A DNA stretch of 64,000 bases from an uncultured Alteromonadaceae bacterium (lineage in GTDB: Bacteria; Pseudomonadota; Gammaproteobacteria; Enterobacterales; Alteromonadaceae). Below the pieces are notes generated by a model. It ran no database searches. It saw nothing but the letters and a program-made list of their open reading frames with translations, and had not been told where the DNA came from. The position numbers and the translations under genes are program-made. Below, piece by piece: positions 6,740-49,042 of this stretch; positions within the stretch are counted from its first letter, which is position 1; each line of letters opens with the position of its first letter. The stretch lies in the NCBI GenBank assembly GCA_913056495.1, contig CAJXMO010000002.1, forward strand, positions 239,347-303,346, written 5' to 3'.

Positions 6740-6768
6740 GTTTCCGGATTTTAATGCAGGTGATCTGA

Positions 6769-7134
6769 CTAAACTTTTAACTTTTCAGTATAGGGTGGCC
6801 AGCCCATCGCTTTGCCTGCCAACATGTGTAAATGTATGTGATAAACCGTTTGTCCGCCATTAGCATTACAATTCATTACGACTCTGTAACCCTCATCTGC
6901 AAAACCGTTTTCTTTAGCTAACTGGGCGGCAACCCGATATAAATGCCCAATTAGAGGCATATCTTCAACTTGAATATCATTGATAGTTGCAATGGGTTTT
7001 TTTGGAATAATTAAACAATGAAACGGGGCCTGTGGATTAATATCTTTAAATGCCAGGGCCTCATCATCCTCGTAAATAATATCGGCAGGTATTTCTCGAC
7101 TTATAATTTTGGTAAAAATAGTATCGCTGGACAT
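6769..7134 (-). CDS. hinT: HIT-family purine nucleoside phosphoramidase
   Basis: HIHLH triad, DINPQAP motif. Confidence 0.92.
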   Translation of the reverse strand: MSSDTIFTKIISREIPADIIYEDDEALAFKDINPQAPFHCLIIPKKPIATINDIQVEDMPLIGHLYRVAAQLAKENGFADEGYRVVMNCNANGGQTVYHIHLHMLAGKAMGWPPYTEKLKV

Positions 7135-7341
7135 ATCAGCTCCTTGCGGTTAGCGTAATGAATTCATAGTTTTGATAAACCTAATCGGTTTAATTAATTA
7201 GCAGCTTGTACCAATTCGTTTATTATAACAAAAGTATTTAATCTCAGCCCGTGATTAGAATTAGTTGCAGACGTGTATTCGTATATTAGCCGGGTGTAGA
7301 TATCAGAATTATTTTTTAGATAAATAAAAACAGGATCTGAA

Positions 7342-8691: not shown

Positions 8692-8729
8692 ATTCTGATA
8701 GGTCAGGGTTATTTTGAACCCGTGATGAT

Positions 8730-8759
8730 AAAGAGGAAGTTTTAAGGCTTCCTCTTTTT
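8730..8759. terminator. Terminator between gor and the lyase gene
   Basis: AAAGAGGAAG-TTTTAAGG-CTTCCTCTTTTT. Confidence 0.75.
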
Positions 8760-8833
8760 ATTTCCGGCTTTAATAATCGACCAGCTCAAGTCAAAGCCTT
8801 AGTGACTTAATGAGTGGTTCGAATAAAAGCGCA

Positions 8834-10525
8834 CTAATCCAACAGATCAATTGCATCAACGCTAATGCTCGGTGATAAGTAGCCGGTTGTAGTTGTCCCA
8901 CTGATCACTGAAACGGTCAGTATATTCCAGTCTCCTGAGTTTGTTTGCCATGCACTGGCCGGTACATCAAAAGTATAAGTGGTATTGTTACATCTGTAAG
9001 TCCCTGTTGTCAGATTGCGAGTGCCCGGTTGGCTCGAAGCTGATTGGAAAGATGAAGTCCAGTTATTTACAGTAATATTGGGGCGTCCGCCGGCAAACGC
9101 ACAAGTTATACCAATTCTCAGCGTATGTGCTTGAGCGAGTTGAGCGGAAGATAATTTAAAATAAATGATGTGATCATTATTGATATCTTTCCACATATAA
9201 GCAGGGAAACCAGTATCACTGGTTGTGCCAACGATATAATTGGACGGATCCCAGTTACTCATTCGAACATCAGAGGGATGCATTGTTGTCAATTTATCAC
9301 CGTTTAAAAACTCCTTAGGTGTGCCATCCCAGTCACCAATTCGCCAGATAGCTGAGTCATCACTTGGATCGTTATTAATACTGAAAGAATTCAGTATGGT
9401 AACTTGTCCTGCTTGTACACTGACGCTTCTACTATCAACTGCCAACTCATTTTTGTAGGTGGTCATTGTGTAGGTGCCCGGGCGCATATTGTCCCGGCTA
9501 TAATACCCACTACTTGGGTTTGCATCTGCCCAGTATTGAGCTGAGGCATTTGCAAAGCCGACTGTGTAATCATAATTCCCATCTAAATTTGAAATGCCCA
9601 CGCCGGCGACCCGGCCACGACCAGAATTTGCAAGGTATCCGGATAAACTCATTTGAGAAAACCAACTGGTATCCGGAGTTGATGGATCTGATCCATCTGT
9701 TACCACTAATGTATAATGATTCAGCAAGCCTGTGCGGTAAGCTTCTGTTTGTGCTTGCGCATAATTTACAATATAAGTGATTTCCTGATCAGTTGAACTA
9801 CCCTGATTTAGCAAGCTGCGATAGAAAGGTCCGCCTGAACTGCCTTCCTGATCATCTTTCACCAACCAGACACCGACACCGCTGCCGGTTGCGCCTATAT
9901 ATGACCAGTCTTTAGCTCGCATATTGGAATAGTGCTTTGAGCGGGTTTCTCCATTATTCAAGGCAAATATATCACCGGCTTCAACCGTTGAAACCGTCTG
10001 CGAAATATCCGACGGTTCGGGGCCGTATGGCAGTTGATTGCGCTGCATTCTTAATATATATCTGACATGGCCATGAATATCCGGCTCATTACTGAAATAA
10101 GTCCCCATATATATATGCGGGTATCCGTTTCTGGCCATATAATAATGTGTTAAATCACCAGCCTGAACGGTCACTTTTATATAGTCTGTGTTGATTGTTT
10201 GCGCACTGACAGATACTGCTGAAGTACCGTTATAGAGCCAATCAAAACCTGAATTAATTTGCGATCCCCGGCTTTGATTTTGAAATTCAACACCATTAAT
10301 TTTAAGTGATGCCAGATCGCCAGGTGACTGAGTACTGGAGCCGTTATCTGTTCTTCGAATACTAAATACCACACCTGCATTCGTATCCACTGTGTAAAAG
10401 TCGGTTGAGGTATTCAGTGAAAAAGCCGCATTGGCTTGTTGAGCAAATATTAAACCCAAAAAACTCAAACTGATACACCAGAGCCGTAACAGGCAACTAT
10501 TCAATTTTATATTGCGTTTTATCAT
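8834..10525 (-). CDS. Secreted rhamnogalacturonan lyase, PL4 (RhgB/RhiE-like)
   Basis: Signal peptide ending ANA; RSKHYS, GGPFYR, WRIGDWDGTP and HPSDVRM motifs; three-domain PL4 layout. Confidence 0.85.
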   Translation of the reverse strand: MIKRNIKLNSCLLRLWCISLSFLGLIFAQQANAAFSLNTSTDFYTVDTNAGVVFSIRRTDNGSSTQSPGDLASLKINGVEFQNQSRGSQINSGFDWLYNGTSAVSVSAQTINTDYIKVTVQAGDLTHYYMARNGYPHIYMGTYFSNEPDIHGHVRYILRMQRNQLPYGPEPSDISQTVSTVEAGDIFALNNGETRSKHYSNMRAKDWSYIGATGSGVGVWLVKDDQEGSSGGPFYRSLLNQGSSTDQEITYIVNYAQAQTEAYRTGLLNHYTLVVTDGSDPSTPDTSWFSQMSLSGYLANSGRGRVAGVGISNLDGNYDYTVGFANASAQYWADANPSSGYYSRDNMRPGTYTMTTYKNELAVDSRSVSVQAGQVTILNSFSINNDPSDDSAIWRIGDWDGTPKEFLNGDKLTTMHPSDVRMSNWDPSNYIVGTTSDTGFPAYMWKDINNDHIIYFKLSSAQLAQAHTLRIGITCAFAGGRPNITVNNWTSSFQSASSQPGTRNLTTGTYRCNNTTYTFDVPASAWQTNSGDWNILTVSVISGTTTTGYLSPSISVDAIDLLD

Positions 10526-10852
10526 TTATTTTTTCCTTTAATTTTAAAGGTGGCTGAAGGTTAGAGAAATTGCTCTTTACGCTAATAGCCAATCCCTTTG
10601 TTAATGCTTTTTATTTGAGTAGCTTAAGTTTGTTCAAAAAATAAGCTACATCAGAGTTAAGTAAATTGTTTTAAAAAGATCAATAAAAAGTAAACAAAAA
10701 AGATCAAAATCAATCTGTTTTGTGATTTTTTATGATTGGTTGGTTTTTATTGAAGGGAACAGTTTGAGTGATAAGTTGAAACTGTTAGGCGTTTTATCTG
10801 GAGGAAATATCTCAGGTTAAGCCCGGTTTTTTCATATTTGTTGTTAAACAAC

Positions 10853-10872
10853 TTATGCATACGTATGCATAA
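10853..10872. promoter_or_regulatory. Perfect 20-bp palindromic operator TTATGCATACGTATGCATAA
   Basis: Exact palindrome with central CG in the divergent intergenic region. Confidence 0.75.
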
Positions 10873-11013
10873 AACAGCTTGATTTGAACTAAATACAGCC
10901 AGCTAATATCAATGTTTTTTGTTGTGTAAGCTTATGTTTTTTAATTGTTTATTGTTATTTTGAAATTTTTACTTTGTTTTTTAAATGTTAAATTTGTGAT
11001 TCTTGTGTGTTAT

Positions 11014-11031
11014 TGAATACGTATGCATACG
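11014..11031. promoter_or_regulatory. Second operator copy TGAATACGTATGCATACG
   Basis: One mismatch to the core of the first palindrome; just upstream of TTGTCA at 11036-11041. Confidence 0.65.
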
Positions 11032-11143
11032 CTTGTTGTCAACGAATTGCTAACGCTAGTATTAGCGCCAAGCTTGAGTGGGAAAATCACAATTCAAGCA
11101 ATACTTTTTATATTCAATTTGTCTGCACGGCAGGGGATAACAC

Positions 11144-14002
11144 ATGAGAAATTTTAAACCTAGTTTGTTAACTTTAGCACTCGCTACGACTGGCCTAATG
11201 AGCTATCAATCAGTTGCAGCAGAGAACGATGGTGCCAATACCGAAGTTGAAGAAGTGATTCAGGTTCGCGGTATTCGCGGTAGCTTGATGAGAGCACAAG
11301 CGGTGAAAATGGATAGCACCTCTGTCGTTGAAGTTATTTCTGCTGAAGATATTGGTAAATTACCGGATTCATCGATTGCTGAATCTTTATCTCGCTTACC
11401 AGGTTTAGCTGGTGAACGCAGAAATGGCCGTACCAGTGGTATCTCAGTTCGTGGTTTTAAAGAAGATTATGTCGGCACTACGTTAAACGGCCGTGAAGTT
11501 TTGGGTATCGGCGACAACCGAGGCGTTGAATACGATTTATATCCATCTGAAATTATGAATGGTGTCGTGGTTCATAAAACATCTGAAGCAACGTTAACTA
11601 CACAGGGCATAGGTGGTACGGTAGATTTACAAACCGTCAGACCTTTAGCATCAGACGAATATTATGCAATCAATGCCAATTTTGAACAAAATGGTATGAA
11701 ATCGGCTAACCCTGATTTTGATGATAAAGGTCATCGAATTGCGGCCAGTATGTCGAAAAAGTTTCTGGATGATACTTTAGGGTTTGCGTTAGCGGTTGCT
11801 TCAACTGAATCTCCAAGTCAGGAGGAGCAATTCCGAGGTTGGGGTTATGCTGATGTATCTAGCCCTAATCTGGCTGACGGTGTGACTTTGGCTGATGGCG
11901 AAACCGTTAAAGTATTAGGTGGTCATGATTCTTATGTTCGTTCAGCTATGCTTGAACGCGATACAGTCTCTGCCGTATTACAATACGCGCCTTCTGCTGA
12001 TTTTAAAGTGACATTAGATGCGCTTTATATCGATTTTTCTGACTCTCAGGTTAAGCGAGGGTTAGAAGAGGGGGGCGCTGAATGGGGTGTAGGCAGTGAC
12101 TATACGATTACTGAAATTCAGGATGGATTAGTGACCAAAGGTATTGTTGGCAATTCAAGCAATGCATTCCGTTCAGTTATCCGTAATGATGCGTATGAGA
12201 AAAAAGCTGAGTTAAATGCGTTTGCAGCTAACTTTGAATACTTTTTAAATGATGATTGGAAAGCGACGTTAGATTTATCAACCAGTCAGTCTGAAAAGAC
12301 GATTACAGATATTGAAAGCTATTCAGGTGTGGGTCGTTCAAACCATGTTAATCAGGGTGCTGGCGCGATCCGTTCATTTGAAATGACACCAACTGGGGTC
12401 ATGTATTCAGATGAAAATGTAGCTGATTATACTGATGAATCATTAATGAAATTAGCGGGTCCGCAGGCCTGGGGTGGTGATTTACAAGTTTTCTCAGACG
12501 AAATCGGAACCAGTGCTACAAATGCCGCTAATGGTGAATTTAATTATAACCATGCTCAGGATGGTTTTATCAATAAACCTGTATTTGAAGAAGAACTTAA
12601 TACATTCAGATTTGATGTTGAAGGGTTTCTTGAACTTGGCATTATCAACAAAGTGACCGCAGGTGTGAACTATACAGATCGCACAAAAAGTAAAGTTAAT
12701 ACAGGTGCTTATTTAACGGTAAATAACAGCGATTTATTTGCCCAAGGCGCGATTCCGAGTGACTACATTGTCGGAACCACTAACTTAAACTTTATCGGTA
12801 TTAGTGATTTTATTGCTTATGACAGTTTAGCGCTTTATAAAGATGGTGGTTATGTTGAGTGGGATGCTGCTTTAGCACAAACAGCCCGTCTAGGGGATAG
12901 TTATGAAGTAGCAGAAGATGTAACTCAGGCTTACGTTAAATTTGATTTAGAAACAGACATTGGCGATATATTTGTCAAAGGTAATTTTGGTGTTCAGTAC
13001 GTTAAAACCAATCAGTCATCAAGCGGTTTTTATTCAACCAAAGATGCTGACGCATCTGTATTAGCTAATACGACATCGGGTGAAGACAGCTATGATCATG
13101 TATTGCCTAGCTTAACCTTAAACTTTGAGTTAACCGATAATCAGGTTGTAATTACCTCACTTTCAAAAACATTAAGCCGCGCGCGGATTGATGATTTAAG
13201 AGCCAGTGGTGCAATTACATTTGATGGCACCTCAGGCCGTATCGACAGCACAGACGTAGAAAACAGTCCTTGGAGTGCTAATGGTGGTAACCCTAACTTA
13301 AAACCGTTAGAAGCAAATCAGTTTGACTTGAACTACAGCTGGTACTTTGCGGATGATGGTTTCTTCTCGGCTGCTTTTTTCTACAAAGATTTAGTCAACT
13401 GGCATAGAGATACGAGTCTGTTGGTTGATTTCTCTGACGGTTATATTCCTGAAGTTCATCAGTATTTAGGCGAAGCACCTAAGATTTTTGAAGGGTATCA
13501 GGATACTAAAGAAGACGGTTTAGAAGGTTTTGTAAGAGGTTACGAAGTGCAGGCAAACCTACCACTTCATAACATTGCTGATGTATTAGATGGTTTTGGT
13601 ATTGTCGCAAGTGCATCCTTTACGGATGGTAGCTTAGATGATGGTTCTCGTGTACCGGGTCTTTCTGAAGAAAGCTATCAATTAACGGCATATTATGAAA
13701 ACAACGGTTTTGAATTCAGAATCTCTGGACGTAAACGTGACGAATTCATGACAGAAACTCGCGGTTTAAGTTTAGCTCTCGAAGAAACTGAAAATCGTGG
13801 TGAAGAATTATGGGATGCTCAAATCGGCTATGACTTTGGTAAAGGTGGTTTTGAATCTTTAGACGGTTTATCTATTAGTTTACAGGCTCAAAACTTAACG
13901 GATGAAGATACACTACAGGCTGAAGCGTCTGACCCTCGTCAGGTCACCAAGTATCAGTCTTTTGGTGCTAACTATTTATTCGGTGTTAATTATAAGTTCT
14001 AA
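11144..14002 (+). CDS. TonB-dependent receptor (carbohydrate-type)
   Basis: Signal peptide; TonB box-like EEVIQVRG; plug motif SAEDIGKLPDSSIAESLSRLPG; terminal YKF. Confidence 0.93.
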   Translation: MRNFKPSLLTLALATTGLMSYQSVAAENDGANTEVEEVIQVRGIRGSLMRAQAVKMDSTSVVEVISAEDIGKLPDSSIAESLSRLPGLAGERRNGRTSGISVRGFKEDYVGTTLNGREVLGIGDNRGVEYDLYPSEIMNGVVVHKTSEATLTTQGIGGTVDLQTVRPLASDEYYAINANFEQNGMKSANPDFDDKGHRIAASMSKKFLDDTLGFALAVASTESPSQEEQFRGWGYADVSSPNLADGVTLADGETVKVLGGHDSYVRSAMLERDTVSAVLQYAPSADFKVTLDALYIDFSDSQVKRGLEEGGAEWGVGSDYTITEIQDGLVTKGIVGNSSNAFRSVIRNDAYEKKAELNAFAANFEYFLNDDWKATLDLSTSQSEKTITDIESYSGVGRSNHVNQGAGAIRSFEMTPTGVMYSDENVADYTDESLMKLAGPQAWGGDLQVFSDEIGTSATNAANGEFNYNHAQDGFINKPVFEEELNTFRFDVEGFLELGIINKVTAGVNYTDRTKSKVNTGAYLTVNNSDLFAQGAIPSDYIVGTTNLNFIGISDFIAYDSLALYKDGGYVEWDAALAQTARLGDSYEVAEDVTQAYVKFDLETDIGDIFVKGNFGVQYVKTNQSSSGFYSTKDADASVLANTTSGEDSYDHVLPSLTLNFELTDNQVVITSLSKTLSRARIDDLRASGAITFDGTSGRIDSTDVENSPWSANGGNPNLKPLEANQFDLNYSWYFADDGFFSAAFFYKDLVNWHRDTSLLVDFSDGYIPEVHQYLGEAPKIFEGYQDTKEDGLEGFVRGYEVQANLPLHNIADVLDGFGIVASASFTDGSLDDGSRVPGLSEESYQLTAYYENNGFEFRISGRKRDEFMTETRGLSLALEETENRGEELWDAQIGYDFGKGGFESLDGLSISLQAQNLTDEDTLQAEASDPRQVTKYQSFGANYLFGVNYKF

Positions 14003-14031
14003 GCCCCAGCGCGCAGAATTCAAGCTAAGGT

Positions 14032-14066
14032 AAAAAACCTGCTACCCTTTAGTAGCAGGTTTTTTT
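14032..14066 (+). terminator. Terminator/attenuator after the TBDR gene
   Basis: AAAAAACCTGCTAC...GTAGCAGGTTTTTTT. Confidence 0.8.
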
Positions 14067-14101
14067 ATTTTTGTTATTCCTTGTAATCTAGAGTATTAGT
14101 C

Positions 14102-15595
14102 ATGCAAAACAAAAGCTTAAAAGTTGTTGTTGTCGGCGGTGGTACATCAGGCTGGATGTCAGCTGCGTTATTAAAAAAGGTATTAGGTGACTCAATCGAA
14201 CTGGAATTGGTTGAATCTGAGCAGATAGGTATTGTGGGTGTAGGTGAAGCAACTATACCACCGATTCAGCAAGTTAATCAGGTACTTGGCATAGACGAAG
14301 CCGAATTTATGCGTGAAACCAAGGCGACAATTAAACTCGCAATTAAGTTTGAGCATTGGCAAAATTTAAATCAGGATTATTTTCACACCTTTGGTTCTGC
14401 CGGAAAAAGTTTACCGTTTTGCCATTATCATCATTTATGGGTTCGCGCCCACCAACTGGGGCTGGATGATAATTTGTGGGATCACGATTTAAATTATCAT
14501 GCCTGTGTAGCAGAAAAGTTTGCTAAATTGCAGGTTAAAGACCCACTGTTTGATATGAAGTATGCCTATCATTTTGACTCCGGTTTATATGGGCAGTTTT
14601 TAAGAAAAGTATCTGAAAAAATGGGGGTTAAAAGAACCGAAGGGTTCATCGAAAGCATACAGCTAAATCCTCAAACTGGACATGTGGAATCATTAACTTT
14701 AAAAGACAGCTCTGTCGTTAATGGTGATTTGTTTATTGACTGCTCAGGTTTTAAAGGTTTATTAATTAATCAAAAGCTAGGTAGCGGGTTTGAAGACTGG
14801 AGCCACTGGCTACCCTGTGACAGCGCAATTGCCGTACCTACTGAAAGATTCGAAAAAACATTGCCTTATACCCGATCAATTGCTCGTGAATTTGGCTGGC
14901 AGTGGCAGATACCGCTGCAACACAGAAATGGTAATGGTCTGGTCTATTCAAGTCGGTATGTCTCAGATGAAACTGCAAAAGAAACACTGCTTTCAAATCT
15001 GACAACACCGACACTGGCCGAGCCTAAATTAATTAAATTTAAAACAGGCCGGGCATTAAAACAATGGAATAAAAATGTGGTTGCGGTTGGTCTGGCAAGT
15101 GGTTTTTTAGAGCCGCTGGAATCAACCAGCATCTATTTAGTACAGAGTGCTATTGTGCGTTTACTGAAATTCTTCCCGCAAACGGAAATCAGTCCGGCTT
15201 CGGTGGATGAGTATAACCGTCAGTCTAAACTGGAATATGAACAGATTCGTGACTTTATTATTTTACATTATTATGTCACTCAGCGCACAGACAGTCAGTT
15301 CTGGTTAGACATGCAAAAAATGCAGGTACCAGAGCGACTTGCCAATAAAATTAAAATCTTTGAAGCAACTGGCACTATTACACATGATGAGTTTGATGTT
15401 TTTTGGGAGCCTTCCTGGCTTCAGGTCATGTTAGGGCAAGGTATAAAACCTAAGGCCTACCACCCATTGGCCAATCAGTTTAGCGAACAACAATTAACAG
15501 AACTGATGCGGACGATGAAACAAAATAAACAGGCTCCAGTTAATAATATGCCTGACCATGACAACTTTTTAGCCATGTATTTAAGCAAGGGGTAG
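14102..15595 (+). CDS. Tryptophan-halogenase-family flavin-dependent halogenase
   Basis: GGGTSG, VGEAT, TIKLAIKF (catalytic Lys region), WQWQIP, EPLESTS. Confidence 0.92.
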   Translation: MQNKSLKVVVVGGGTSGWMSAALLKKVLGDSIELELVESEQIGIVGVGEATIPPIQQVNQVLGIDEAEFMRETKATIKLAIKFEHWQNLNQDYFHTFGSAGKSLPFCHYHHLWVRAHQLGLDDNLWDHDLNYHACVAEKFAKLQVKDPLFDMKYAYHFDSGLYGQFLRKVSEKMGVKRTEGFIESIQLNPQTGHVESLTLKDSSVVNGDLFIDCSGFKGLLINQKLGSGFEDWSHWLPCDSAIAVPTERFEKTLPYTRSIAREFGWQWQIPLQHRNGNGLVYSSRYVSDETAKETLLSNLTTPTLAEPKLIKFKTGRALKQWNKNVVAVGLASGFLEPLESTSIYLVQSAIVRLLKFFPQTEISPASVDEYNRQSKLEYEQIRDFIILHYYVTQRTDSQFWLDMQKMQVPERLANKIKIFEATGTITHDEFDVFWEPSWLQVMLGQGIKPKAYHPLANQFSEQQLTELMRTMKQNKQAPVNNMPDHDNFLAMYLSKG

Positions 15596-36285: not shown

Positions 36286-37938
36286 TTATACCAGGCTGTA
36301 ATGCACCTCAATCGTTTTACCCTGATTTTTATATTCCAGTTTGTCCGCCAGCTCCGAAATAAGTTTTAAGCCTCTGCCGTGTTGATCTTTCTGATTGAGA
36401 ATTTGATTCAGTCGTTCGCAGTCAAACCCTTTACCACTATCTGTTATCGAAAGTCTGATTTGATGTTGATTAGGCAGGTGGCATATATCCAGTTCGAGAA
36501 ATCCTTCATCCAGCCTTTCAAGTACGTTTTGTCTTTCAATATAGTATTCAAAAAAACCATCTTCGGCATCTTTAAGTTTTGAATCAAGCCCTAGTAACCC
36601 ATGATCGACTGAATTGTTGTACATTTCTGCCAGTAGCAAAAATAAAGTTGATCTGTGTTTTTCCATGCCTTGAAAGCTTGCAATCATATCAATCACCTGA
36701 GCGACCGGATCTGTATTTCTGATATCCTGCGGCAGCAGTTTAAGTTGTATTTTCCAGGGCAATAAAGGGATAGGGATATTCGGTTGACTGATATTGTCTG
36801 TTGCGGGCAAGCATTTAAGCTGTGCAATTGATATATCATCCGCTTGCTCTGAAGATCCGCGATAATCATCTAAATGGGCAATCAGCTCAAACAATTCTGC
36901 TTTTGGATGTGCCTGATAATACTCGGCTAATCTGTCTTCACCAAACATGACTTCCTGGGGATCCATGGTTTCGGTTACGCCATCTGTAAATATGAGTAAA
37001 CGGTCATGAGGGGTTACATCACAGTTAACCATTTCCGTTTCAAATTCATCATCTTCCAGTATACCTAAAGCCATATGCTGCGGCATGAGCGTTTGTCTAA
37101 GTCCGGTTCTGTCATCAATAATAAATACTTCTGGCATGCCGCCACTCCATATTGAGATGGCTTTACCACTATTTGATAACTCAATAATGGTGGCAGCGCA
37201 GAACATATCATCCGGCAGCAGGTTAAGTAACTGAGCGTTAATTTCTTTAGCGATGTCGCCGACAATTAACCCTTCGTTTGTTTTATTAAAGAAAGTTTGT
37301 GCCGTTGGCAAGGCACCTACTGCTGCAGCTAAACCATGCCCGGTGAAATCGCCTAAAAACAAGTAAGTCCCGCCCAGCGGACTTCTGTTTGCTAAAAATA
37401 AGTCACCATTAAACATAGAAGCCGGGGAGAGATGATAGCTGACAATTTCATCTAAATAAGCGTTTTTTGAAAATGCATTTGAAAAAATATGCTCAATAAT
37501 AGCGTGTTCACGCTGAGTCTGATTTTGATAGTATTTAAGCTCGTTTCTTTGTTCCAGTAATCGTTTTGAAAGCTCTCTCGTTCTGGCGTGGGCTTTAATT
37601 TTTGCAGACAGCAAAACCTTATCGAATGGTTTGGTTAAAAAATCATCTCCACCGACTTCTAGGCATCGCAACATAGAATCCTGATCATCCAGGGAGGTGA
37701 TAAATATAATGGGTAAATGAAGGTCACCGGCCAGGTCTTTTAAAATCGGAGCAGTTTCAAATCCGTCCATGACAGGCATAATGACATCTAATAAAATAAT
37801 ATCAGGCTGCGTCTCTTTAAATGTCTCCAGAGCATGCTTGCCATGTTCAGCATGAAAAACCTGATATCCCTCTAACTCAAGCATGTACTTGAGCATGATC
37901 CGGTTTAGCTCCTGATCATCTACAACCAAAATCCGCAT
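36286..37938 (-). CDS. REC + PP2C/SpoIIE phosphatase + GHKL kinase (CrsR/HsbR-like)
   Basis: N-terminal receiver (VVDD, LLDVIMP), GDFTGHG, FTDG, DDIS, then EMYNNSVDHG...DSGKGF...GRGL. Confidence 0.88.
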   Translation of the reverse strand: MRILVVDDQELNRIMLKYMLELEGYQVFHAEHGKHALETFKETQPDIILLDVIMPVMDGFETAPILKDLAGDLHLPIIFITSLDDQDSMLRCLEVGGDDFLTKPFDKVLLSAKIKAHARTRELSKRLLEQRNELKYYQNQTQREHAIIEHIFSNAFSKNAYLDEIVSYHLSPASMFNGDLFLANRSPLGGTYLFLGDFTGHGLAAAVGALPTAQTFFNKTNEGLIVGDIAKEINAQLLNLLPDDMFCAATIIELSNSGKAISIWSGGMPEVFIIDDRTGLRQTLMPQHMALGILEDDEFETEMVNCDVTPHDRLLIFTDGVTETMDPQEVMFGEDRLAEYYQAHPKAELFELIAHLDDYRGSSEQADDISIAQLKCLPATDNISQPNIPIPLLPWKIQLKLLPQDIRNTDPVAQVIDMIASFQGMEKHRSTLFLLLAEMYNNSVDHGLLGLDSKLKDAEDGFFEYYIERQNVLERLDEGFLELDICHLPNQHQIRLSITDSGKGFDCERLNQILNQKDQHGRGLKLISELADKLEYKNQGKTIEVHYSLV

Positions 37939-37982
37939 CGATAACTCCTTGCTGTATTGTGAAAATACGGAATGTAAAGGGG

Positions 37983-38288
37983 TTAATCGATAATGAATTT
38001 TTTATCAAATCTGGAAATTTGCAGAATCTTTTTGATTTGCGGGCGGCAATTACTGATGGTGATTGATGATACTGTGTCGCCTAAATTCTTCTGCATATTG
38101 AGCAGCATACCCAATGCAGAAGAGTCCATATATTCGGTATTTCTCAGATCCACAACCAGTTTAGGTTTATTTGTGCCTACTTGTTGATAAGCAGCTCTAA
38201 AGTCCTGGACTAAATTAAAATCGAATTTACCATCAATTTGAATCGTAAATGTACTACCGTCAGACGATAAGTTTTGGGTTAGGCTCAT
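37983..38288 (-). CDS. STAS anti-sigma-factor antagonist (CrsA/HsbA-like)
   Basis: YMDSSALGMLL phospho-Ser motif; start at MSLTQ. Confidence 0.9.
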   Translation of the reverse strand: MSLTQNLSSDGSTFTIQIDGKFDFNLVQDFRAAYQQVGTNKPKLVVDLRNTEYMDSSALGMLLNMQKNLGDTVSSITISNCRPQIKKILQISRFDKKFIID

Positions 38289-38644
38289 GCAGACTTTTCC
38301 TGTCAATTTATTTGAATAAATTTATACACCTACCCGAAGTTTAGCAGCTTGATTCTATTTGTGAATAATAAAAAGTGCGAAACTGTATTTATCTGTTATG
38401 TTTACGAATTGATACACGGATACAGCAAGCTTAATCGGCTGTTAACCAGTTAAATGAATAGCTTTTTGGCCGGAAAATTTAACTTTGTTTTCTTTTTCAG
38501 TAACTGAGCAATTCGGAGTTTTCTTGTTAATTAGATTGATAATTATCTGACTAAACACATGGTAACCAGATTCAAATCAAGGTATAAATATATTCACATA
38601 AAAAATATAAAACTTAATAATAACAACAAGTACAAGGCAATGAG

Positions 38645-39442
38645 ATGACAGAATTATCGCCAGCTGATTTATCAATACTGCTCGTAGAGCCCTCGGCAGT
38701 TCAACGCAAAGTCATTATCAAACACTTAGAAAAAGAAGCCATTACTCAGATTACTCAGGCTGAAGATATTCAGTCGGCCAGAGCATCTATTATGCAGCAC
38801 ATTCCGGATTTGGTTATCTCATCTTTGCATTTTCCAGATGGTACCGGGCTTGAATTATTGCATCATATCCGTCATTCAGAGCCTTATTCCGATGTGCCAT
38901 TTATGTTGGTCTCGAGTGAGTGGCGTAAAGAGCAGTTGGAAGAATTTAAGCAAGCCGGTGTGGTTGCTATTTTACCCAAACCTTTTGACTCTGCACATTT
39001 AGGGACGGCAATCAATTCTACGCTGGATTTATTATCCGCTGATGAATTAAATCTTGAACTGTTTGATGTACATGATATCCGCGTGCTTGTTGTAGACGAT
39101 AGTCGTTTGGCGCGCAACCACATTAAACGGGTCCTTAGCAATCTTGGCGTGCAAAGAATTACAGAAGCTGAAGATGGTGAACAGGCAAAAACGATTTTAA
39201 ATGAAAAAATGTTTGATCTTGTGGTGACTGATTTTAATATGCCGAATCTAGACGGGCGTGAGTTAACTGAATTTATTCGTCAAAACAGTCAACAGTCGCA
39301 TATTCCTGTGTTGATGGTGAGTTCTGAAGCTAATGAAACTCACTTGGCCAATATTGAACAAGCTGGTGTAAATGCCATTTGTGATAAACCGTTTGAGCCA
39401 CAAATGGTTAAACAAATACTCTTTAATCTGCTAAACCAATAA
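38645..39442 (+). CDS. Tandem-receiver response regulator without output domain
   Basis: Two REC domains; first degenerate (VEPS, ISSLHFP), second canonical (VVDD, TDFNMP, KPF). Confidence 0.85.
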   Translation: MTELSPADLSILLVEPSAVQRKVIIKHLEKEAITQITQAEDIQSARASIMQHIPDLVISSLHFPDGTGLELLHHIRHSEPYSDVPFMLVSSEWRKEQLEEFKQAGVVAILPKPFDSAHLGTAINSTLDLLSADELNLELFDVHDIRVLVVDDSRLARNHIKRVLSNLGVQRITEAEDGEQAKTILNEKMFDLVVTDFNMPNLDGRELTEFIRQNSQQSHIPVLMVSSEANETHLANIEQAGVNAICDKPFEPQMVKQILFNLLNQ

Positions 39443-42022: not shown

Positions 42023-42970
42023 TTAAAAGTTAACCGGCAGCTCTTCAATACTAAAACGTCCTGCGCGTATATCCCGCTTGGAATCTTCAGCTATCTCTCC
42101 CAGTTTAAATAACCCTGGGCCGGTCGGCTCAGCTAGCACATAGTCTATACCGTCTAAACTAATGTATTCATCTTGCTGGCTATGTCCCAACTGCAACCCG
42201 ACTAGTGCGTGATTGGGTAAATAAACCATGACCAGGTTTAAACGAGCAAAGAGCGCCCGCATTAAGCTTATAAAGAGAGTTGATTTGCTGTCACAGTCGC
42301 CTTGGTTTTCCATTAGTAAACGATTTGGCGGACTGAATCCGGCACCATGGGATGTGACCCTATTATCTAATGTGGAGTAGGGAATACTTTGAATCCAGCT
42401 AAGGTAATAATTAATAATATCTCGGCTACTCATGTTTCTTAAATTGTCCTGAGCCTGTGCAACTATATCGTCAAATAAAGGTAAAGCTTGTTGAGCAATC
42501 CGGATATGATCCGGTTTTACATAAGCTTGGGCAAAGCGGTCAGTAAATTCTGTGTAATAATGATTGGCTAAATACTGGTTCAGTATATCTAGTCTTAATT
42601 GACTGATTTTCTGATGTATCTCGTGAAACTCGGTTGTATCTCTGGTTTTGATTTTTATCTGAACCTGTTCGCCCAGTTTATTGAGTTTTATTTGTGTATA
42701 CCTGGATTGATATTGGGGTAATTCTGCCTGCAACTTCATGTATAAATAGTGATTTGCCAATGCTGGCCGATAAGTTTTAAAGGTTCTGAAAAGCTGATGA
42801 AGGTGTTTTTTATTGACTGAAAAGCTTAAATTTTGCGGCTGGTTATTATGATCCTGCCATTGATAATTAAACTGATTTCCTGAATGATTAAAATATAGTT
42901 CAGTCGCCTGAAGCGGGATGATTGTCAGCCAAGTTAACAACAGGAAAATACTTTTCACTCGTTTTTGCAA
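42023..42970 (-). CDS. Exported transglutaminase-like/papain-fold protein
   Basis: Signal peptide; QGDCDSK (Cys), PNHA (His), AEPTG (Glu). Confidence 0.65.
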   Translation of the reverse strand: MQKRVKSIFLLLTWLTIIPLQATELYFNHSGNQFNYQWQDHNNQPQNLSFSVNKKHLHQLFRTFKTYRPALANHYLYMKLQAELPQYQSRYTQIKLNKLGEQVQIKIKTRDTTEFHEIHQKISQLRLDILNQYLANHYYTEFTDRFAQAYVKPDHIRIAQQALPLFDDIVAQAQDNLRNMSSRDIINYYLSWIQSIPYSTLDNRVTSHGAGFSPPNRLLMENQGDCDSKSTLFISLMRALFARLNLVMVYLPNHALVGLQLGHSQQDEYISLDGIDYVLAEPTGPGLFKLGEIAEDSKRDIRAGRFSIEELPVNF

Positions 42971-43156: not shown

Positions 43157-44506
43157 ATGTATAAATTAAAAAAATATTGGATTGTTTGCTGTTTTATTGG
43201 CGTTGTTAATGCTGCGTCGTTTAATAGTTATGCCTCAGATGACAGACAAAAACTCATAGAGTTGGTTGAACAACAAAATTACCCGGCAGCGTATCAGTTA
43301 GCAGAACAATTGTTTGATTTGTTAGCGGGTGATCCCGACTTTGATTATTTATATGGCTTGGCGGCTTATCATGCTGGCTATTTTCAAGAGGCTATTTTTG
43401 CATTTGAACGGACCTTATTAGTCAGGCCTGAAGATGATAATGCCAGATACGCATTGGCTCTGGTATATTTCAAAGTTGAAAATTATATTGCTGCGCGGGC
43501 TGAATTTGCTCGTTTAGAACATACCCAAGATGAATATGTACGTCAGCAAAGTTTGCAATACATGCAAGCCATCGAAGGTAATTTACAGGCTAATAACGCT
43601 CAGTTAGCAGCCAATTTAAGTGTTGGGCTAGGTTATGATTCTAATGTGAACTCGGGGTTGGGTGACGAGCTCTACCCAATACCGATTCCAAATGTCGGCT
43701 TGGTTGATTTTAAATTTCCTGAGCAATCTGCTTATCAGCAATCTTTGTCTGCCAATGTTTTGTATTTTAGACCGCTAACCAAACCTGGTGGCATTATCGC
43801 CAGTGCAGCCTTTGATAAAACCAATTACTCCGGCTCAGATAGTCTTGAAAAAGCCAATTTGGATCTGGCTGTAGGCTATATTCATAAATGGCAGAACTAT
43901 ACGGCAAAGGCGACTGTGTTTTATCAAAAGTTTTGGTTTGGCGGAGGTGTTTATCAGGACCTCTACGCTGTGCTCGGGCAAGTTAACTGGCAGTATAAAA
44001 CAAACCAAAAAATTGCGCTGAGCTCCAATTTTTCAATTACAGATAATATTGAGAACGATAACTTAGATTTACAAACAAATAGCTTTAAACTGAGTCATAG
44101 TTATCGTTTTAGTGAACATAAATTGACCACTTATGTCTCACATGGTAAAGAGTCAGTAACAGATTATAGTTTTGACTCTAAGCATTATGAAAGGTACGTA
44201 AATGCACTGGGTATTAACTGGCAAATGCTGGTTAATGACTGGGGTATATTTGAACTTGGATATCAGTACCAGTCAACCCGCCACCCTCACTTGAATGAAA
44301 CCATTGTGGGAGCTGGGGGGGAGAGTTTGTTCTTTGAGCAAAAGCGGAAAGATCATATAAACACAGTTAAATTCGGTTTTGAATATTTCATTTCAAAACA
44401 ATGGCAATGGCAAAACAGTTATCAGATAAGTAACAGAAACAGTAATCACTTATTTTATAACTTTGACAGAAGTGTATTTAGTAGCCAACTGAATTACCGC
44501 TTTTAA
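43157..44506 (+). CDS. TPR + outer-membrane beta-barrel, Slam/DUF560 (T11SS)-like
   Basis: Signal peptide; N-terminal TPR helices (YLYGLAAY...A...FER...P....RYALA); barrel begins GLGYDSNVN; terminal QLNYRF. Confidence 0.75.
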   Translation: MYKLKKYWIVCCFIGVVNAASFNSYASDDRQKLIELVEQQNYPAAYQLAEQLFDLLAGDPDFDYLYGLAAYHAGYFQEAIFAFERTLLVRPEDDNARYALALVYFKVENYIAARAEFARLEHTQDEYVRQQSLQYMQAIEGNLQANNAQLAANLSVGLGYDSNVNSGLGDELYPIPIPNVGLVDFKFPEQSAYQQSLSANVLYFRPLTKPGGIIASAAFDKTNYSGSDSLEKANLDLAVGYIHKWQNYTAKATVFYQKFWFGGGVYQDLYAVLGQVNWQYKTNQKIALSSNFSITDNIENDNLDLQTNSFKLSHSYRFSEHKLTTYVSHGKESVTDYSFDSKHYERYVNALGINWQMLVNDWGIFELGYQYQSTRHPHLNETIVGAGGESLFFEQKRKDHINTVKFGFEYFISKQWQWQNSYQISNRNSNHLFYNFDRSVFSSQLNYRF

Positions 44507-44516
44507 GAGGTAAGTT

Positions 44517-45719
44517 ATGACGTTTAAAAATTTAATGGTATCAAGCAGCTTTGCTTGCTTGTTAATTTCAACAATTGGCCTGATGGCCGCAAGTGCAAAC
44601 GCATCCGAATCTGAACTCGCAGGTAAAACAATTATTGCCAGTGGTGATGTCAATGCGTTTACACCAGAGGATAAGCGCACATTAAGTCGTCGCTCTCCAA
44701 TTTATAAGATAGATAAAGTGACTACGGCCGATGATAGTCAGGCTCAATTTAAAATGATTGACGGTGGTATTGTTGCATTACAAGCCAACACAGAATTAGA
44801 AATAGCCAGCTATCAGTATGATCAGGAAACTAACACGGGTTCCGCTGTGATGAATTTGATCTCAGGCGGATTGCGTACCATTAGTGGGAAAATTAAAAGC
44901 TACAATGGCAATTATACGCTGAATACGCCAGCAGGCAGCATTGGTGTGCGAGGAACTCATTTTGAAGTTGAGATACTGGGCGATGAGCTCTTTTTAGCTG
45001 TTTGGGACGGGGCGGTTGATTTTAAGGTGAGCCGCACCGGGAAGTTGTTTTCGTTTGGTGAAAATGAAAACTTTAACTATGCAAAAATTCAACAGACCAC
45101 AGGCGCAGTAAAAGGCTTATTGAATCCGCCAGCTGTTTTTGAAAGCGGGTATGCAGTGCCGGAAAATCAAGCTTCGAAAGTTAAAACCGGCCCGAGTAAA
45201 AACGAAACCATTTCTATTGCCGTTCAGGCTTCAAAAAAGCGTAGTCCGGTCGCTACTGAAATCCTGACGTCAGGTAAACCCACGAGCAGTGGCGTAGCTA
45301 GCGAACTTAATCCTTCAGAATTAAAAAAAGATTCAGATTTATTTGCTTTGCAAAACCCAATTGCTGAGCGAGTTGGGGTGACAAAATTTGAGTTGGTTAA
45401 TCACAACTTCACCAGCTCTATGGGAGATGTATCTGATGCGAATATGGAAATGACGGTCAATTTTGATAAGCAGCGTGTTGTTACCGGCTTTTTATCCTTT
45501 AATGATGAAGGTGGAAAATGGAGCGCTCGATTTAATGGCGCCATTAATCAGGCAAAACTTGAATTAGATGTGCTGAATGCATCTCACGGTAAAAACCGCG
45601 CTGAAGGGGAAATCAACGGAGAGTTTACCAGTGATAATCAAGCTCGCGGCAGCCTCTTTTTCAACGAGATCAAAATGCCGTCAGTTTCTGCTGGTGGGGA
45701 ATTTGAGTTAGCTGAATAA
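44517..45719 (+). CDS. FecR-domain exported protein with C-terminal beta-barrel-like domain
   Basis: Signal peptide; FecR motif (TPAGSIGVRGTHF); S/K/P-rich linker; beta-rich C-terminus (MTVNF, FNGAI, INGEF, GGEF). Confidence 0.75.
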   Translation: MTFKNLMVSSSFACLLISTIGLMAASANASESELAGKTIIASGDVNAFTPEDKRTLSRRSPIYKIDKVTTADDSQAQFKMIDGGIVALQANTELEIASYQYDQETNTGSAVMNLISGGLRTISGKIKSYNGNYTLNTPAGSIGVRGTHFEVEILGDELFLAVWDGAVDFKVSRTGKLFSFGENENFNYAKIQQTTGAVKGLLNPPAVFESGYAVPENQASKVKTGPSKNETISIAVQASKKRSPVATEILTSGKPTSSGVASELNPSELKKDSDLFALQNPIAERVGVTKFELVNHNFTSSMGDVSDANMEMTVNFDKQRVVTGFLSFNDEGGKWSARFNGAINQAKLELDVLNASHGKNRAEGEINGEFTSDNQARGSLFFNEIKMPSVSAGGEFELAE

Positions 45720-45731
45720 AGTTGAAGTTGA

Positions 45732-45772
45732 TACCGCCAGGCTTTTGTATTGTGAGCAAAAGCCTGGCGGTA
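45732..45772. repeat. 16-bp perfect inverted repeat without U-tract
   Basis: TACCGCCAGGCTTTTG-9nt-CAAAAGCCTGGCGGTA. Confidence 0.8.
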
Positions 45773-45900: not shown

Positions 45901-46746
45901 ATGCAAGTTACTTTTTATGGGGTCAGAGGGTCTTTACCTGCAGTTGGTTCTGAATTTATCAAGTATGGCGGCAATACTGCATGTGTTCATGTTGTATTGA
46001 GTGACGGCACAGACTTGATACTCGATGCCGGTACCGGAATTGTAAAACTGGGCGAACAACTACAACAAAGTGTCCGCCCCATTCATTTATTGCTGACACA
46101 TAATCACTGGGATCATATTCAAGGCTTTCCGTTTTTTCGACCGGCTTACCAAGCCGGCCGGGATATTCATATCACACCGGGATTAACAGAACCCAAACAC
46201 GATATTGCGATATTAAAACAGATGTCCGATACCTGGTTTCCTATCGGACACGATCAATTAAAAGCGAATATCGAATTTACGCAGCTGAATGAGCTGCATC
46301 AGTGGCAGCTCGGCAGCGCTAGCATTAAACGAGTTCAAATTAACCATCCTGGTGGCGGCAGTGCTTACCTGATAGAAGATGCGGGTGTTAAACTGGCTTA
46401 TATCACAGATAATGAACTCGATCCGCCATATAAAAAAGCAACCAGTTATACACAGTGGCTGGCGTTTTTGGATTCTGTAGATTTACTGATCCATGATGCT
46501 CAGTATGCCGAACAGGATATGCCACTTAAACATGGTTGGGGGCACAGCCTTATTCAGCAAACCGTTGATTTAGCCTGTCAGGCGAAAGTGAAACAATGTG
46601 CTTTGTTCAGCCATGATTTTGGTCGGACTGATCAGCAAATTGATCTTCAAATGGAAAAAATTGCTCTGTACCTGCAAGAAAAACAATTGAATATTGACAT
46701 TTTTGCTGCTGCCGAGGGCATGTCGCTGGACTTGGAAGCTCAATAA
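45901..46746 (+). CDS. MBL-fold metallohydrolase (putative cyclic-nucleotide phosphodiesterase)
   Basis: GVRGS, YGGNT, LDAGTG, THNHWDH, NHPGG, HDAQY, GHS. Confidence 0.8.
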   Translation: MQVTFYGVRGSLPAVGSEFIKYGGNTACVHVVLSDGTDLILDAGTGIVKLGEQLQQSVRPIHLLLTHNHWDHIQGFPFFRPAYQAGRDIHITPGLTEPKHDIAILKQMSDTWFPIGHDQLKANIEFTQLNELHQWQLGSASIKRVQINHPGGGSAYLIEDAGVKLAYITDNELDPPYKKATSYTQWLAFLDSVDLLIHDAQYAEQDMPLKHGWGHSLIQQTVDLACQAKVKQCALFSHDFGRTDQQIDLQMEKIALYLQEKQLNIDIFAAAEGMSLDLEAQ

Positions 46747-46813: not shown

Positions 46814-49042
46814 ATGACCCTAAAAAAATTCACTGTCATTTTGGGCTTAATATTAACGGCTCTGATTATTGCTTGGCAATTGGCACCCAATGGCTCAAGC
46901 GCCAGAATTTCACTCAATAAAATCGAGGGCATATTGTATGATGCCCGCCTCAATTTATTCAGAGAACCATTTACACAAGCTGCTGATCTGCAAGCTCCAA
47001 ATAAAATTGTCATTATTGATATCGACGAAAAATCGATAAAAGAGCAAGGCCGTTTTCCCTGGAGTCGGGCCGTAATGGCTAAGCTAGTTGACGGTTTATT
47101 CGAAGCAAACGTTGCGGTTGTTGCATTTGATATTATGTTTAGCGAGTCTCAGGTTAATCCGGTTGATACGCTGCTAACCGCCCCGGATTTAACCGATCAA
47201 ACCAAAAAACAGTTATTGGCTCTGAAATCTGAATTTGATGCGGATAAACAGTTTGCCCAAAGTTTGTCCCGCGGAGATGTGGTTCTGGCCATGTTATTAG
47301 ATAATCAAACTGCATCAGAACCTTATTCTGTCTTATCGTCCAACTCAGTTCGTAGTTCCGTACAGTTGGAACAAGGTATTGCAGCTGAAACAACAACTGC
47401 GATTCATAAACCGGTTATCCGCGCGGCTATTGATAAACTAAATTTAAATCCGGATGAAACTTTATTTGCCCTGAATCAGGGGTTTATTAATTCAATGCCG
47501 GATGATGATGGCTCAATTCGAAAGGCTGCTTTGTTACTCAGACATCAGGGGACTTTATATCCTTCACTGGCGCTTGAAGCCGTTCGCAGTTATTCATTTG
47601 AACCTGTCATTCAGGTTGAAACTCGGCCAGCCGGAGATTTTGATTATATCAACGCAATCTGGCTTAACCAGAAGAAAGTGCCGACAGATGCACATGGCCG
47701 GATTTGGGTGCCCTATCAGGGTAAACAGGCCAGTTTTCCTTATATATCAGCAACGGATGTGATAACCGGTCGGGCTAACTCCGAACGACTCGCCGGATCG
47801 ATTGCTTTTGTTGGCACATCGGCAGCTGGATTAGCCGATTTAATAGAGGCGCCGGTTGGCATGCAGTATCCGGGCGTTGAAGTACACGCAAATGTGGCTT
47901 ATGGCTTGCTCAACCCTGAAATATTGCTGGTTGAACCCGATTCGAGTGATGCTATGGTTGCGCTGTTTTTATTATCTATTGGTTTAGTCCTGAGTTTATT
48001 TTTGGTTAAGTTTGAACCGGTTAATATGCTTTTGGTTGGGGTTGTAACCCTGATTGCCAGTATTTCGATTAACCTGATTCTCTGGCGCTATTATGCCTGG
48101 GTATTGCCGCTGACGTCGTCTGTACTTTTGGTTTTCAGTGTCAGTTTAATCAATATTGTTAGCGGTTATCTCAGAGAAAGTTTTCAGAAAAATAAAATCA
48201 AAACCTATTTTGAGCAATATGTACCGGCGGCTCATATCGATAAAATGCTTGCGGCACCAGAACAGGTGAGTCTGGCGGGAGAGCGTAAACAAATGACGGT
48301 CTTATTTGCCGATATTCGTGATTTTACCCATATCTCGGAACAGCTCAGTGCAAATCAGGTCAAATTGCTGCTCAATGCTTATTTATCTCCAATCACAAAA
48401 GTGATTTTAGAGAACCATGGCACGATTGATAAATATGTCGGCGATATGGTGATGGCGTTTTGGGGCGCGCCACTCAATGATGATGAACACGCCGAACACG
48501 CGGTAAAAGCCGCGTTAGCTATGTTAGACAAAGCCAAACAATTGAATCTTGAGTTTGCCAAAAAAGGCTGGCCTGAAATTAAACTGGGCATTGGCATTAA
48601 TACAGGTGAAATGAATGTCGGCGATATGGGCTCTGAATTTAGGCGCGCCTATACTGTCATTGGCGATTCAGTTAATCTGGCCAGTCGACTGGAAAGTCTG
48701 ACCAAATATTACGGAGTTGATATTTTGATCAGTGAACAGACTTATTATGATGCACATGCGTTTGATCACTATCTGATTGATAAGGTAAAAGTGAAAGGCA
48801 AGCAAAAAGCAATCGAAGTCTATCAGCCAAACCGGCCTTTATCCAAACCGAATCAGGTTTTACATCACCGAGCCTATCAGGCTTATTTTGCGCAGGACTG
48901 GCAAACCGCAACCGCTCTGTTCACTCAGTTACACCAAAATACACAAGATAACCTGTATGCGGTTTTTATCGAGCGTATTCAGCAGTTATCTTCGCAGAAT
49001 TTAAACGAATGGGACGGTAGTTATACGCATCAGACTAAATAA
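46814..49042 (+). CDS. CHASE2-domain class III adenylate cyclase
   Basis: TM-CHASE2-3TM; FADIRDF, DKYVGD (Lys, ATP-specific), [15 protein letters not shown]. Confidence 0.92.

Follow-up and report, generated by a model that had tools for sequence, protein, structure and literature searches.

The open reading frame (ORF) considered here lies at positions 44517 to 45719 (forward strand) of a 64,000-nucleotide (nt) stretch of contig CAJXMO010000002.1 from an uncultured Alteromonadaceae bacterium; this whole stretch is referred to as the window, and positions are counted from its first letter. An initial annotation, made from the sequence alone, had described the encoded protein as a FecR domain fused through a disordered linker to a C-terminal β-barrel that acts as an export signal for the type 11 secretion system (T11SS), which would place the FecR domain outside the cell. 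Our analysis bears out each of the sequence features described there, with minor corrections, and partly supports that interpretation. The product combines a FecR sandwich with a T11SS-type cargo barrel in one polypeptide that is exported by Sec and not lipidated, and it is encoded between a T11SS-family outer-membrane protein (OMP) and the genes for a metallo-β-lactamase (MBL)-fold hydrolase and a CHASE2-type adenylate cyclase. The initial annotation overlooked this cyclase and phosphodiesterase context, which is the source of the functional meaning of the locus. The features of the locus are as follows, with lengths and domain limits in amino acids (aa).

43157 to 44506, forward strand: T11SS-family (Slam/DUF560-like) OMP, 449 aa, with a signal peptide, TPR helices (aa 29-145), a 14-strand barrel (aa 149-448) and a C-terminus ending in NYRF.
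44504 to 44519, forward strand: coupling junction, where the OMP stop codon TAA overlaps the Shine-Dalgarno sequence AAGAGG, 7 nt ahead of the ATG of the FecR-barrel gene.
44517 to 45719, forward strand: FecR-barrel ORF, 400 aa, real and intact.
44517 to 44603, forward strand: type I (Sec) signal peptide (aa 1-29) with cleavage at ANA/SE, as read from the sequence.
44616 to 45140, forward strand: FecR-type β-sandwich domain (aa 34-208), identified by Pfam, AlphaFold2 and Foldseek.
45141 to 45377, forward strand: disordered linker (aa 209-287), with a predicted local distance difference test (pLDDT) score of 32-52.
45378 to 45719, forward strand: C-terminal 8-stranded TbpB-type soluble barrel (aa 288-400) and stop codon.
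45733 to 45771, forward strand: perfect 15-bp inverted repeat (hairpin), 14 nt past the stop codon of the FecR-barrel gene.
45901 to 46746, forward strand: MBL-fold hydrolase, 281 aa (Pfam Lactamase_B_2, E = 6e-14).
46814 to 49042, forward strand: CHASE2 sensor and class III adenylate cyclase, 742 aa (Pfam CHASE2, E = 4e-54, aa 25-391; Guanylate_cyc, E = 3e-24, aa 491-667).

An AlphaFold2 model of the FecR-barrel protein, computed with a 35-sequence alignment as input, consists of two confident regions, the β-sandwich and the 8-strand barrel, with a disordered stretch between them. The protein begins with MTFKNLMVSSSFACLLISTIGLMAASANA followed by SE at the mature start, has an AXA cleavage site after aa 29 and shows a modelled helix at aa 10-25, within the signal peptide; the window protein has no lipobox and a chance lipobox-like match is found in only 3 of 81 orthologs, so that the annotated type I signal peptide without a lipobox stands. 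Across the orthologs the signal peptide is conserved and the mature N-terminus starts, in all of them, shortly before an invariant AGKT motif. The Pfam scan and the AlphaFold2 model also bear out the reported lack of the cytoplasmic anti-σ and transmembrane portion of classical FecR proteins: neither an anti-σ N-domain nor a second transmembrane segment was found, and the sole hydrophobic helix is the cleavable signal peptide.

The N-terminal domain is recognized by Pfam FecR (PF04773) at aa 66-167 (E = 4e-15; 56.5 bits, cut-off 24), the only Pfam domain detected in the protein, and the β-sandwich at aa 34-201 was modelled with pLDDT above 90, in agreement with the annotated extent of the FecR domain to about aa 200. 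In Foldseek searches against the PDB, this domain matched the C-terminal cell-surface-signalling domain of PupR (6ovk, E = 7e-6) and the periplasmic domain of the Parabacteroides anti-σ factor BDI_1681 (4m0h), while a PDB sequence search with the profile of the FecR-barrel family returned nothing meaningful (best E = 0.4). The best NCBIfam matches of the N-terminal domain were Leptospira FecR-domain lipoproteins that carry the names surface adhesin Lsa33 and LipL45, both far under the family cut-offs; the earlier remark that a role outside the cell is unusual for the FecR fold was thus overstated. Among orthologs, mean pairwise identity is highest in the FecR domain (57%; 45 of its 175 columns reach 90% identity or more across 81 orthologs), followed by the barrel (45%), the TPR region of the OMP (34%) and the barrel of the OMP (28%), and stands at 19% in the linker. 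Such a pattern of conservation suggests that the FecR domain contacts a conserved protein partner rather than presenting an exposed, diversifying surface.

Between the two folded domains, aa 213-277 were modelled with pLDDT below 50. The description of the linker as Ser/Lys/Pro-rich holds for the window protein, in which Glu is abundant as well, but not for the family, whose linkers are acidic and Ser/Thr-rich and vary in length from 57 to 218 aa (median, 78 aa). In the C-terminal region AlphaFold2 predicted exactly eight antiparallel strands (aa 288-296, 306-315, 320-330, 333-344, 347-357, 360-372, 375-384 and 391-399) with pLDDT of about 97 and inter-strand loops of 2-6 residues, which confirms the alternating strands that had been noticed in the sequence but sets the length of the barrel at about 113 rather than 120 aa. 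Foldseek matched this barrel to TbpB (4o4u, 3hol, 4qq1), fHbp (5nqp, 2y7s), the TbpB C-lobe (5kkx), the NHBA C-terminal barrel (6cuj and 5o1r, the latter with a target-normalised template modelling score of 0.61) and Vibrio harveyi HphA (8gm3), with probabilities of 0.9-1.0 for TbpB-type barrels (about 1.0 for the top matches), as compared to 0.02-0.12 for integral OMPs. Matches ranked lower were 8-stranded ligand-binding barrels, i.e., nitrobindin (3ia8, 3wjb), DUF3598 (2o62) and OssO (7sfp). Pfam TbpB_B_D (PF01298) was detected in several relatives, including the full-length homologs P0045 and P0046 (2e-6), P0218 and P0215 (92 bits). By its predicted fold, the barrel hence belongs to the T11SS cargo class of TbpB, fHbp, NHBA and HphA, as the initial annotation had proposed, and the comparison to TbpB and fHbp barrels that it had suggested came out positive for both.

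A phmmer search with the barrel alone against 1.84 billion representative proteins found 68 relatives and reached P0215 at E = 4e-5; an N-terminal FecR domain was present in 47 of the 54 barrel relatives that were scanned. P0215 itself (locus L083, positions 3779-7786; 1,335 aa) carries a FecR domain followed by four TbpB_B_D repeats. On these profile matches, we consider FecR-TbpBBD fusions to be a true family of proteins, whose members carry one barrel or several. Another multi-barrel relative, P0220, is 2,111 aa long and shows five barrel-like stretches.

The AlphaFold2 model of the OMP (pLDDT 88.7) comprises seven TPR-type helices and 14 long strands; a 14-stranded barrel has been stated for the Slam family (PMC8406197). 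In the window OMP, Pfam detected TPR families (down to 5e-10), a weak TPR_Slam match (0.014) and a weak generic OMP-barrel match. Homologs at 38-41% identity carry PF04575 (SlipAM/DUF560) and the NCBI name "surface lipoprotein assembly modifier"; the orthologs that carry PF04575 span 28-41% identity to the window OMP, and the positional ortholog in Alteromonas facilis passes this model with 30.6 bits (cut-off, 22). Among 57 OMP homologs, 34 matched PF04575 (best 8e-15) and 27 matched TPR_Slam. Foldseek placed the OMP with the TPR-plus-barrel exporters BcsC and PelB, with the 14-stranded OmpG, CymA and FadL as the best single-barrel matches; neither a PDB profile search nor Foldseek found a solved Slam structure for comparison, and the OMP profile returned only TPR proteins and OmpX. 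Homology and predicted architecture together assign the upstream OMP to the Slam/DUF560 (T11SS) family. At the junction between the two genes, TAAGAGGTAAGTTATG, the OMP gene ends 10 nt before the start codon of the FecR-barrel gene, and in most orthologous loci the gap is 8-14 nt or is replaced by an 11-nt overlap. The OMP gene is a dedicated, translationally coupled partner of the FecR-barrel gene.

This arrangement recurs well beyond the window. When one genome per species was scanned, about 190 proved to encode a FecR-barrel relative; locus counts refer to the best 80 of these, all from Alteromonadales and allies (Catenovulum, Pseudoalteromonas, Alteromonas, Colwellia, Rheinheimera, Psychrosphaera, Thalassotalea). 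The TPR-OMP gene lies directly upstream of the FecR-barrel gene in 79 of the 80 loci, with the one exception cut by a contig end, which supports the neighbouring OMP as the partner named in the initial annotation. A downstream CHASE2 cyclase is encoded in 64 loci, several of the cyclase-less loci ending at the flank or at a contig edge, and in 47 of the 80 an MBL hydrolase gene directly precedes the cyclase gene. Outside this group, Thiohalobacter thiocyanaticus encodes a TPR-OMP, a 607-aa FecR protein whose residues 482-602 match the barrel hidden Markov model at 6.5e-11, and a CHASE2 cyclase; a Burkholderiales metagenome-assembled genome encodes a SlipAM OMP and a 480-aa FecR protein with the TbpB-like terminus GGMAIFRKQ; and at the P0215 locus a SlipAM OMP, the FecR-4xTbpBBD protein and a Sel1 protein are accompanied by a REC-cyclase in place of the CHASE2 cyclase. 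The OMP-FecR pair is linked to a nucleotide cyclase in most lineages, usually one with a CHASE2 sensor. Given about 190 species genomes and the conservation of both folded domains, the recurrence of the architecture is far beyond chance.

In at least 63 of the 80 loci, a giant ORF (750-2,580 aa) lies between the FecR-barrel gene and the enzyme genes; the two examples examined (L008, positions 9219-14891; L009, positions 9203-12664) are signal peptidase II lipoproteins with Big_9/cadherin-like (Ig) repeats. Neither the window nor the Catenovulum/Gayadomonas clade has this giant ORF. The giant cadherin/Ig lipoprotein was considered as a second barrel cargo and rejected, given that it shows no sequence similarity to the barrel and that its gene is absent from the window. 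A distant TPR-OMP homolog on a Rhizomicrobium-like contig (L085, positions 7001-11519) is followed by a 1,057-aa protein in which no Pfam, FecR or barrel match was found, with a Crp-family regulator encoded nearby; this protein may represent a different cargo type for a distant OMP clade.

Downstream of the FecR-barrel gene, the hairpin has a free energy of -32.6 kcal/mol (z = -6.2 compared to shuffled sequences) and is unique in the window. Its U-tract is weak and a consensus terminator scan made no call; placed between the OMP-FecR genes and those for the two enzymes, it is probably a terminator or attenuator or else a stem that stabilises the mRNA, so that the two gene pairs may differ in expression. 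The window sequence was found in one marine metagenome DNA run and in no RNA run, and the operon structure consequently rests on gene spacing and the hairpin. The MBL-fold hydrolase matched the NCBIfam model for cyclic nucleotide-degrading phosphodiesterases (NF041851) weakly (E = 5e-6, far below the cut-off), and no solved relative informative beyond RNase Z was found; from its sequence, it is probably a cyclic-nucleotide phosphodiesterase. The CHASE2 cyclase, encoded 1.1 kb downstream of the FecR-barrel gene, carries a Lys...Thr substrate pair (DKYVGD motif), which we take to be the signature of a class IIIb adenylate cyclase.

The neighbouring genes encode L25, Pth, YchF, a transglutaminase-like protein, the MBL protein, the CHASE2 cyclase, RidA, TesB and a NUDIX protein. 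Divergent to the OMP gene, positions 42023-42970 (reverse strand) encode a secreted protein with a weak transglutaminase-core match, which is positionally kept only in eight Catenovulum-clade loci. A separate signalling module lies about 5 kb upstream (36286-38306, reverse strand, and 38645-39442, forward strand); it includes a partner-switching pair, i.e., a 550-aa REC-SpoIIE(PP2C)-HATPase_c_2 protein and a 107-aa STAS protein, and an adjoining protein whose translation shows two apparent receiver (REC) domains.

The known parts present at this locus (i.e., a T11SS OMP, a TbpB-type barrel, a FecR domain and a CHASE2 cyclase) form a combination whose gene cluster has been reported on one earlier occasion. 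Mo et al. (2022, PMC9239204) described a four-gene CHASE2 adenylate cyclase cluster in Campylobacterota, proposed that it represents one pathway and is subject to horizontal transfer, and described the gene equivalent to the MBL gene as a cyclic AMP (cAMP) phosphodiesterase. Compared by description only, this is the same four-gene cluster; however, the authors did not identify its TPR protein as a T11SS/Slam OMP or the C-terminus of its FecR protein as a TbpB-type cargo barrel. The secretion-system nature and the mechanism of the cluster are undescribed in the literature that we searched. A survey of T11SS cargo by Grossman et al. (2025, PMC12282271) lists about ten architectures, none with a FecR domain, and its supplement contains FecR only as a non-significant co-occurring regulator beside sigma-70 domains.

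The locus resembles characterised T11SS pairs (Slam1 with TbpB/fHbp, HsmA/HrpB with hemophilin, HphA, TepS-Pls) in its DUF560 OMP with periplasmic TPR region and 14-strand barrel, in the adjacent partner gene, and in the Sec-dependent partner with a C-terminal 8-stranded TbpB-type barrel; non-lipidated cargo is also known among these pairs. It differs from them by the N-terminal FecR sandwich, by the lack of a pedestal or handle, and by the presence of an adenylate cyclase and a hydrolase rather than TonB, metal or haem genes, none of which was found at the locus; in addition, the two window proteins have diverged so far that neither is detected by its Pfam model unaided.

For the FecR domain, the closest parallels are found beside CHASE2 sensors. 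In Burkholderia (BiofilmReg) and P. aeruginosa, an operon pairs the gene for a LysM-FecR protein with that for a CHASE2 histidine kinase (PMC5192318); as at our locus, a signal-peptide FecR protein is fused to an envelope-fixing module beside a CHASE2 sensor, whereas the anchor there is LysM (peptidoglycan), the output is a histidine kinase and an OMP partner is absent. The window protein shows the features of such CHASE2-associated exported FecR partners, namely a signal peptide, a FecR domain and a nearby CHASE2 gene. In Sinorhizobium meliloti, perception of an external protein signal by CHASE2 cyclases depends on NsrA, a barrel protein of the outer membrane (PMC7529298, PMC13001267), removal of CHASE2 makes CyaD1 constitutive (PMC5498481), and SMc02177, a FecR-domain exported protein whose gene lies in the cyaD1/clr region, is among the Clr target genes and is not needed for signal perception (PMC5498481). 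The S. meliloti pathway (NsrA, CyaK/CyaD1/CyaD2, Clr) is alike in combining an outer-membrane barrel protein, inner-membrane CHASE2 cyclases and a FecR-domain exported protein, but no T11SS link has been proposed there and SMc02177 is dispensable for perception. The FecA-FecR-FecI and PupB-PupR systems also use a FecR-fold periplasmic domain to relay information from an outer-membrane barrel protein to an inner-membrane component, and PupR is the closest solved relative of the N-terminal domain. Relative to these systems the polarity is reversed, as the window protein has a barrel anchor at the outer-membrane end and neither an inner-membrane helix nor an anti-σ domain; the output here would be cAMP rather than an extracytoplasmic function (ECF) σ factor, and the OMP is of the T11SS type rather than a TonB-dependent transducer.

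We thus propose that the ORF encodes the outer-membrane-proximal part of an envelope signalling module of four genes with control over cAMP, a proposal that we judge to have about an even chance of being correct. Under this proposal, the FecR-barrel protein would be exported by Sec and remain unlipidated, its C-terminal TbpB-type barrel would be the part that the cognate T11SS-family OMP encoded upstream recognises, or that targets the protein to this OMP, and its N-terminal FecR domain would be the signalling end, acting on the periplasmic CHASE2 domain of the downstream adenylate cyclase, with the MBL-fold hydrolase removing the cyclic nucleotide. The disordered linker, with its at least 57 aa, would let one polypeptide span from the outer membrane to the inner-membrane sensor. 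The domain architecture, the folds of both domains, the family of the OMP and the conserved gene order are what the analysis observed; engagement of the barrel by the OMP, contact between FecR and CHASE2, the direction of regulation and the signal itself are what sequence and structural models lead us to suppose.

With regard to the location of the FecR domain, we lean towards the periplasmic side rather than full export because (i) the FecR domain is the most conserved element, exceeding both the barrel and the OMP, (ii) FecR domains pair with CHASE2 also where the second module is a peptidoglycan anchor and not a secretion tag (PMC5192318), (iii) the linker is never shorter than 57 residues, which by rough geometry is enough to bridge much of the periplasm, and (iv) the C-terminus-first transport of unfolded cargo (PMC9090332) would permit a stalled, threaded topology. 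The conserved CHASE2 adenylate cyclase at the locus likewise counts toward a periplasmic role, as do the S. meliloti findings that CyaD1 becomes constitutive once CHASE2 is removed and that CHASE2 cyclases there depend on NsrA.

Several observations weigh against the proposed signalling module. Neither the window OMP nor the window FecR-barrel protein itself matches its respective Pfam model (SlipAM PF04575 and TbpB_B_D PF01298) at E ≤ 1. The β-sheet pedestal or handle that has been described as ubiquitous in T11SS cargo (PMC12282271) is absent from the AlphaFold2 model, in which the disordered linker leads straight into strand 1 (aa 288). The closest relatives (P0007, P0009, P0010 and P0014; 337-345 aa, 46-51% identity) have a barrel that is short by about two strands and have nonetheless kept the OMP gene, which points to weaker or changed constraint on the barrel within this sub-lineage; one such relative is encoded by Catenovulum sp. 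2E275 (L005, positions 5236-6237). The strong hairpin splits the OMP-FecR pair from the enzyme genes, such that co-transcription may not be assured, and the assignment of the MBL protein as a phosphodiesterase is weak. Finally, the characterised T11SS cargo proteins are all completely exported, which favours a surface-exposed FecR domain.

This last point leads to a serious rival explanation, in which the whole protein is a conventional T11SS cargo that crosses the outer membrane, the FecR domain is displayed or released outside as an adhesin or a hemophore-like scout, and the cyclase is related only loosely or indirectly. We regard this as possible, though clearly short of probable. The precedent of complete export extends to non-lipidated soluble HphA/hemophilin, whose structure (8gm3) is among the matches of the barrel; Slam translocates unfolded cargo, moving it from a C-terminal motif onward that was proposed to be recognised first (Huynh et al. 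2022, PMC9090332); the Leptospira matches of the N-terminal domain include a lipoprotein named as a surface adhesin; and the giant ORF of most related loci, with cadherin/Ig-repeat lipoproteins in the two cases examined, fits a theme of surface adhesion. On the other hand, conservation is higher in the FecR domain than in the barrel and far higher than in the OMP, opposite to what is seen for exposed T11SS effector domains. Full export would also leave the link to a periplasmic CHASE2 domain, which is seen in non-T11SS lineages as well, unexplained, and a freely released protein would be a poor carrier of signals in sea water.

A second, unlikely explanation is that the protein remains untranslocated as a periplasmic co-sensor of the CHASE2 cyclase, with the barrel forming a lipocalin- or nitrobindin-like pocket or a dock for the TPR region and the OMP serving as a ligand channel. 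The lower-ranked Foldseek matches to ligand-binding barrels, the missing pedestal or handle and the tolerance of the nearest relatives for a loss of about two strands are in line with this idea. By contrast, the top barrel matches, with probabilities of about 1.0, are all T11SS cargo barrels, family members pass PF01298, and strict adjacency and coupling with a SlipAM-family OMP are maintained across distant lineages, as in cognate T11SS pairs. In addition, TbpB-type barrels have a filled core and no pocket.

That the barrel is instead an integral 8-stranded OMP of the OmpX/OmpA type, carrying a periplasmic FecR domain, appears highly improbable; the wording of PMC9239204 and the eight antiparallel strands are compatible with such a protein, but the reading was rejected on the basis of the low Foldseek probabilities for integral OMPs, the uniformly short inter-strand loops, the PF01298 matches of relatives and the C-terminal residue, which is aromatic in none of the 81 FecR-barrel orthologs as compared to a terminal Phe in 75 of 79 OMP orthologs, a difference that argues against a small membrane-inserted barrel. 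A classical FecR-type anti-σ factor of iron-transport cell-surface signalling, which the Pfam FecR domain and the similarity to the PupR periplasmic domain might bring to mind, has next to no likelihood, as it is refuted by an architecture with neither a cytoplasmic anti-σ domain nor a transmembrane helix past the cleavable signal peptide, and as no ECF σ factor, TonB-dependent transducer or TonB gene was found among the neighbours examined.

Within the proposed signalling module, a more specific arrangement, which we put forward tentatively and consider rather doubtful, is a trans-outer-membrane tether created by deliberately incomplete type 11 secretion. Export would begin with the barrel, which the OMP would move outward in the way that Slam moves unfolded cargo and which would fold on the cell surface; a stably folded or CHASE2-bound FecR domain would then be unable to follow, and the linker would remain threaded in the 14-strand pore and span the periplasm. 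Surface events could in this way reach the CHASE2 adenylate cyclase mechanically, with contact, pulling by the giant cadherin-like lipoprotein of most related loci, and proteolysis of the barrel as candidate events. RcsF, which is threaded through OmpA, OmpC or OmpF with a disordered linker in the OMP lumen, one end outside and its signalling domain in the periplasm, is a possible analogue of such a tether; it differs in being a lipoprotein that is assembled by BAM, with no T11SS involved.

Overall, this protein should be read not as a surface-exported FecR domain but as a partner of a CHASE2 adenylate cyclase that carries a FecR domain and is anchored through the T11SS, and the locus looks like an unrecognised connection between the cell surface and cAMP signalling. 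The roles linked to type 11 secretion to date are nutrient capture (transferrin, haem and metals), host adhesion and immune evasion, and nine of ten sequence clusters of T11SS OMPs are without a characterised member (PMC8406197); if our proposal is true, environmental T11SS OMPs would gain a defined partner and a new job, i.e., feeding a second-messenger pathway. CHASE2 is a widespread sensor whose inputs are described as unknown in at least one paper (PMC5192318), and an outer-membrane-anchored FecR partner would be a concrete, testable route by which surface information could reach CHASE2 cyclases and kinases. Should the tether be true as well, a secretion system would have been turned into a surface sensor resembling RcsF, and a CHASE2 domain would for the first time have a defined route of input. 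As the family is common in marine Alteromonadales (such as Pseudoalteromonas, Alteromonas and Colwellia), where a giant cadherin-like lipoprotein is usually encoded with it, it may matter for how marine bacteria attach to surfaces and colonise particles.

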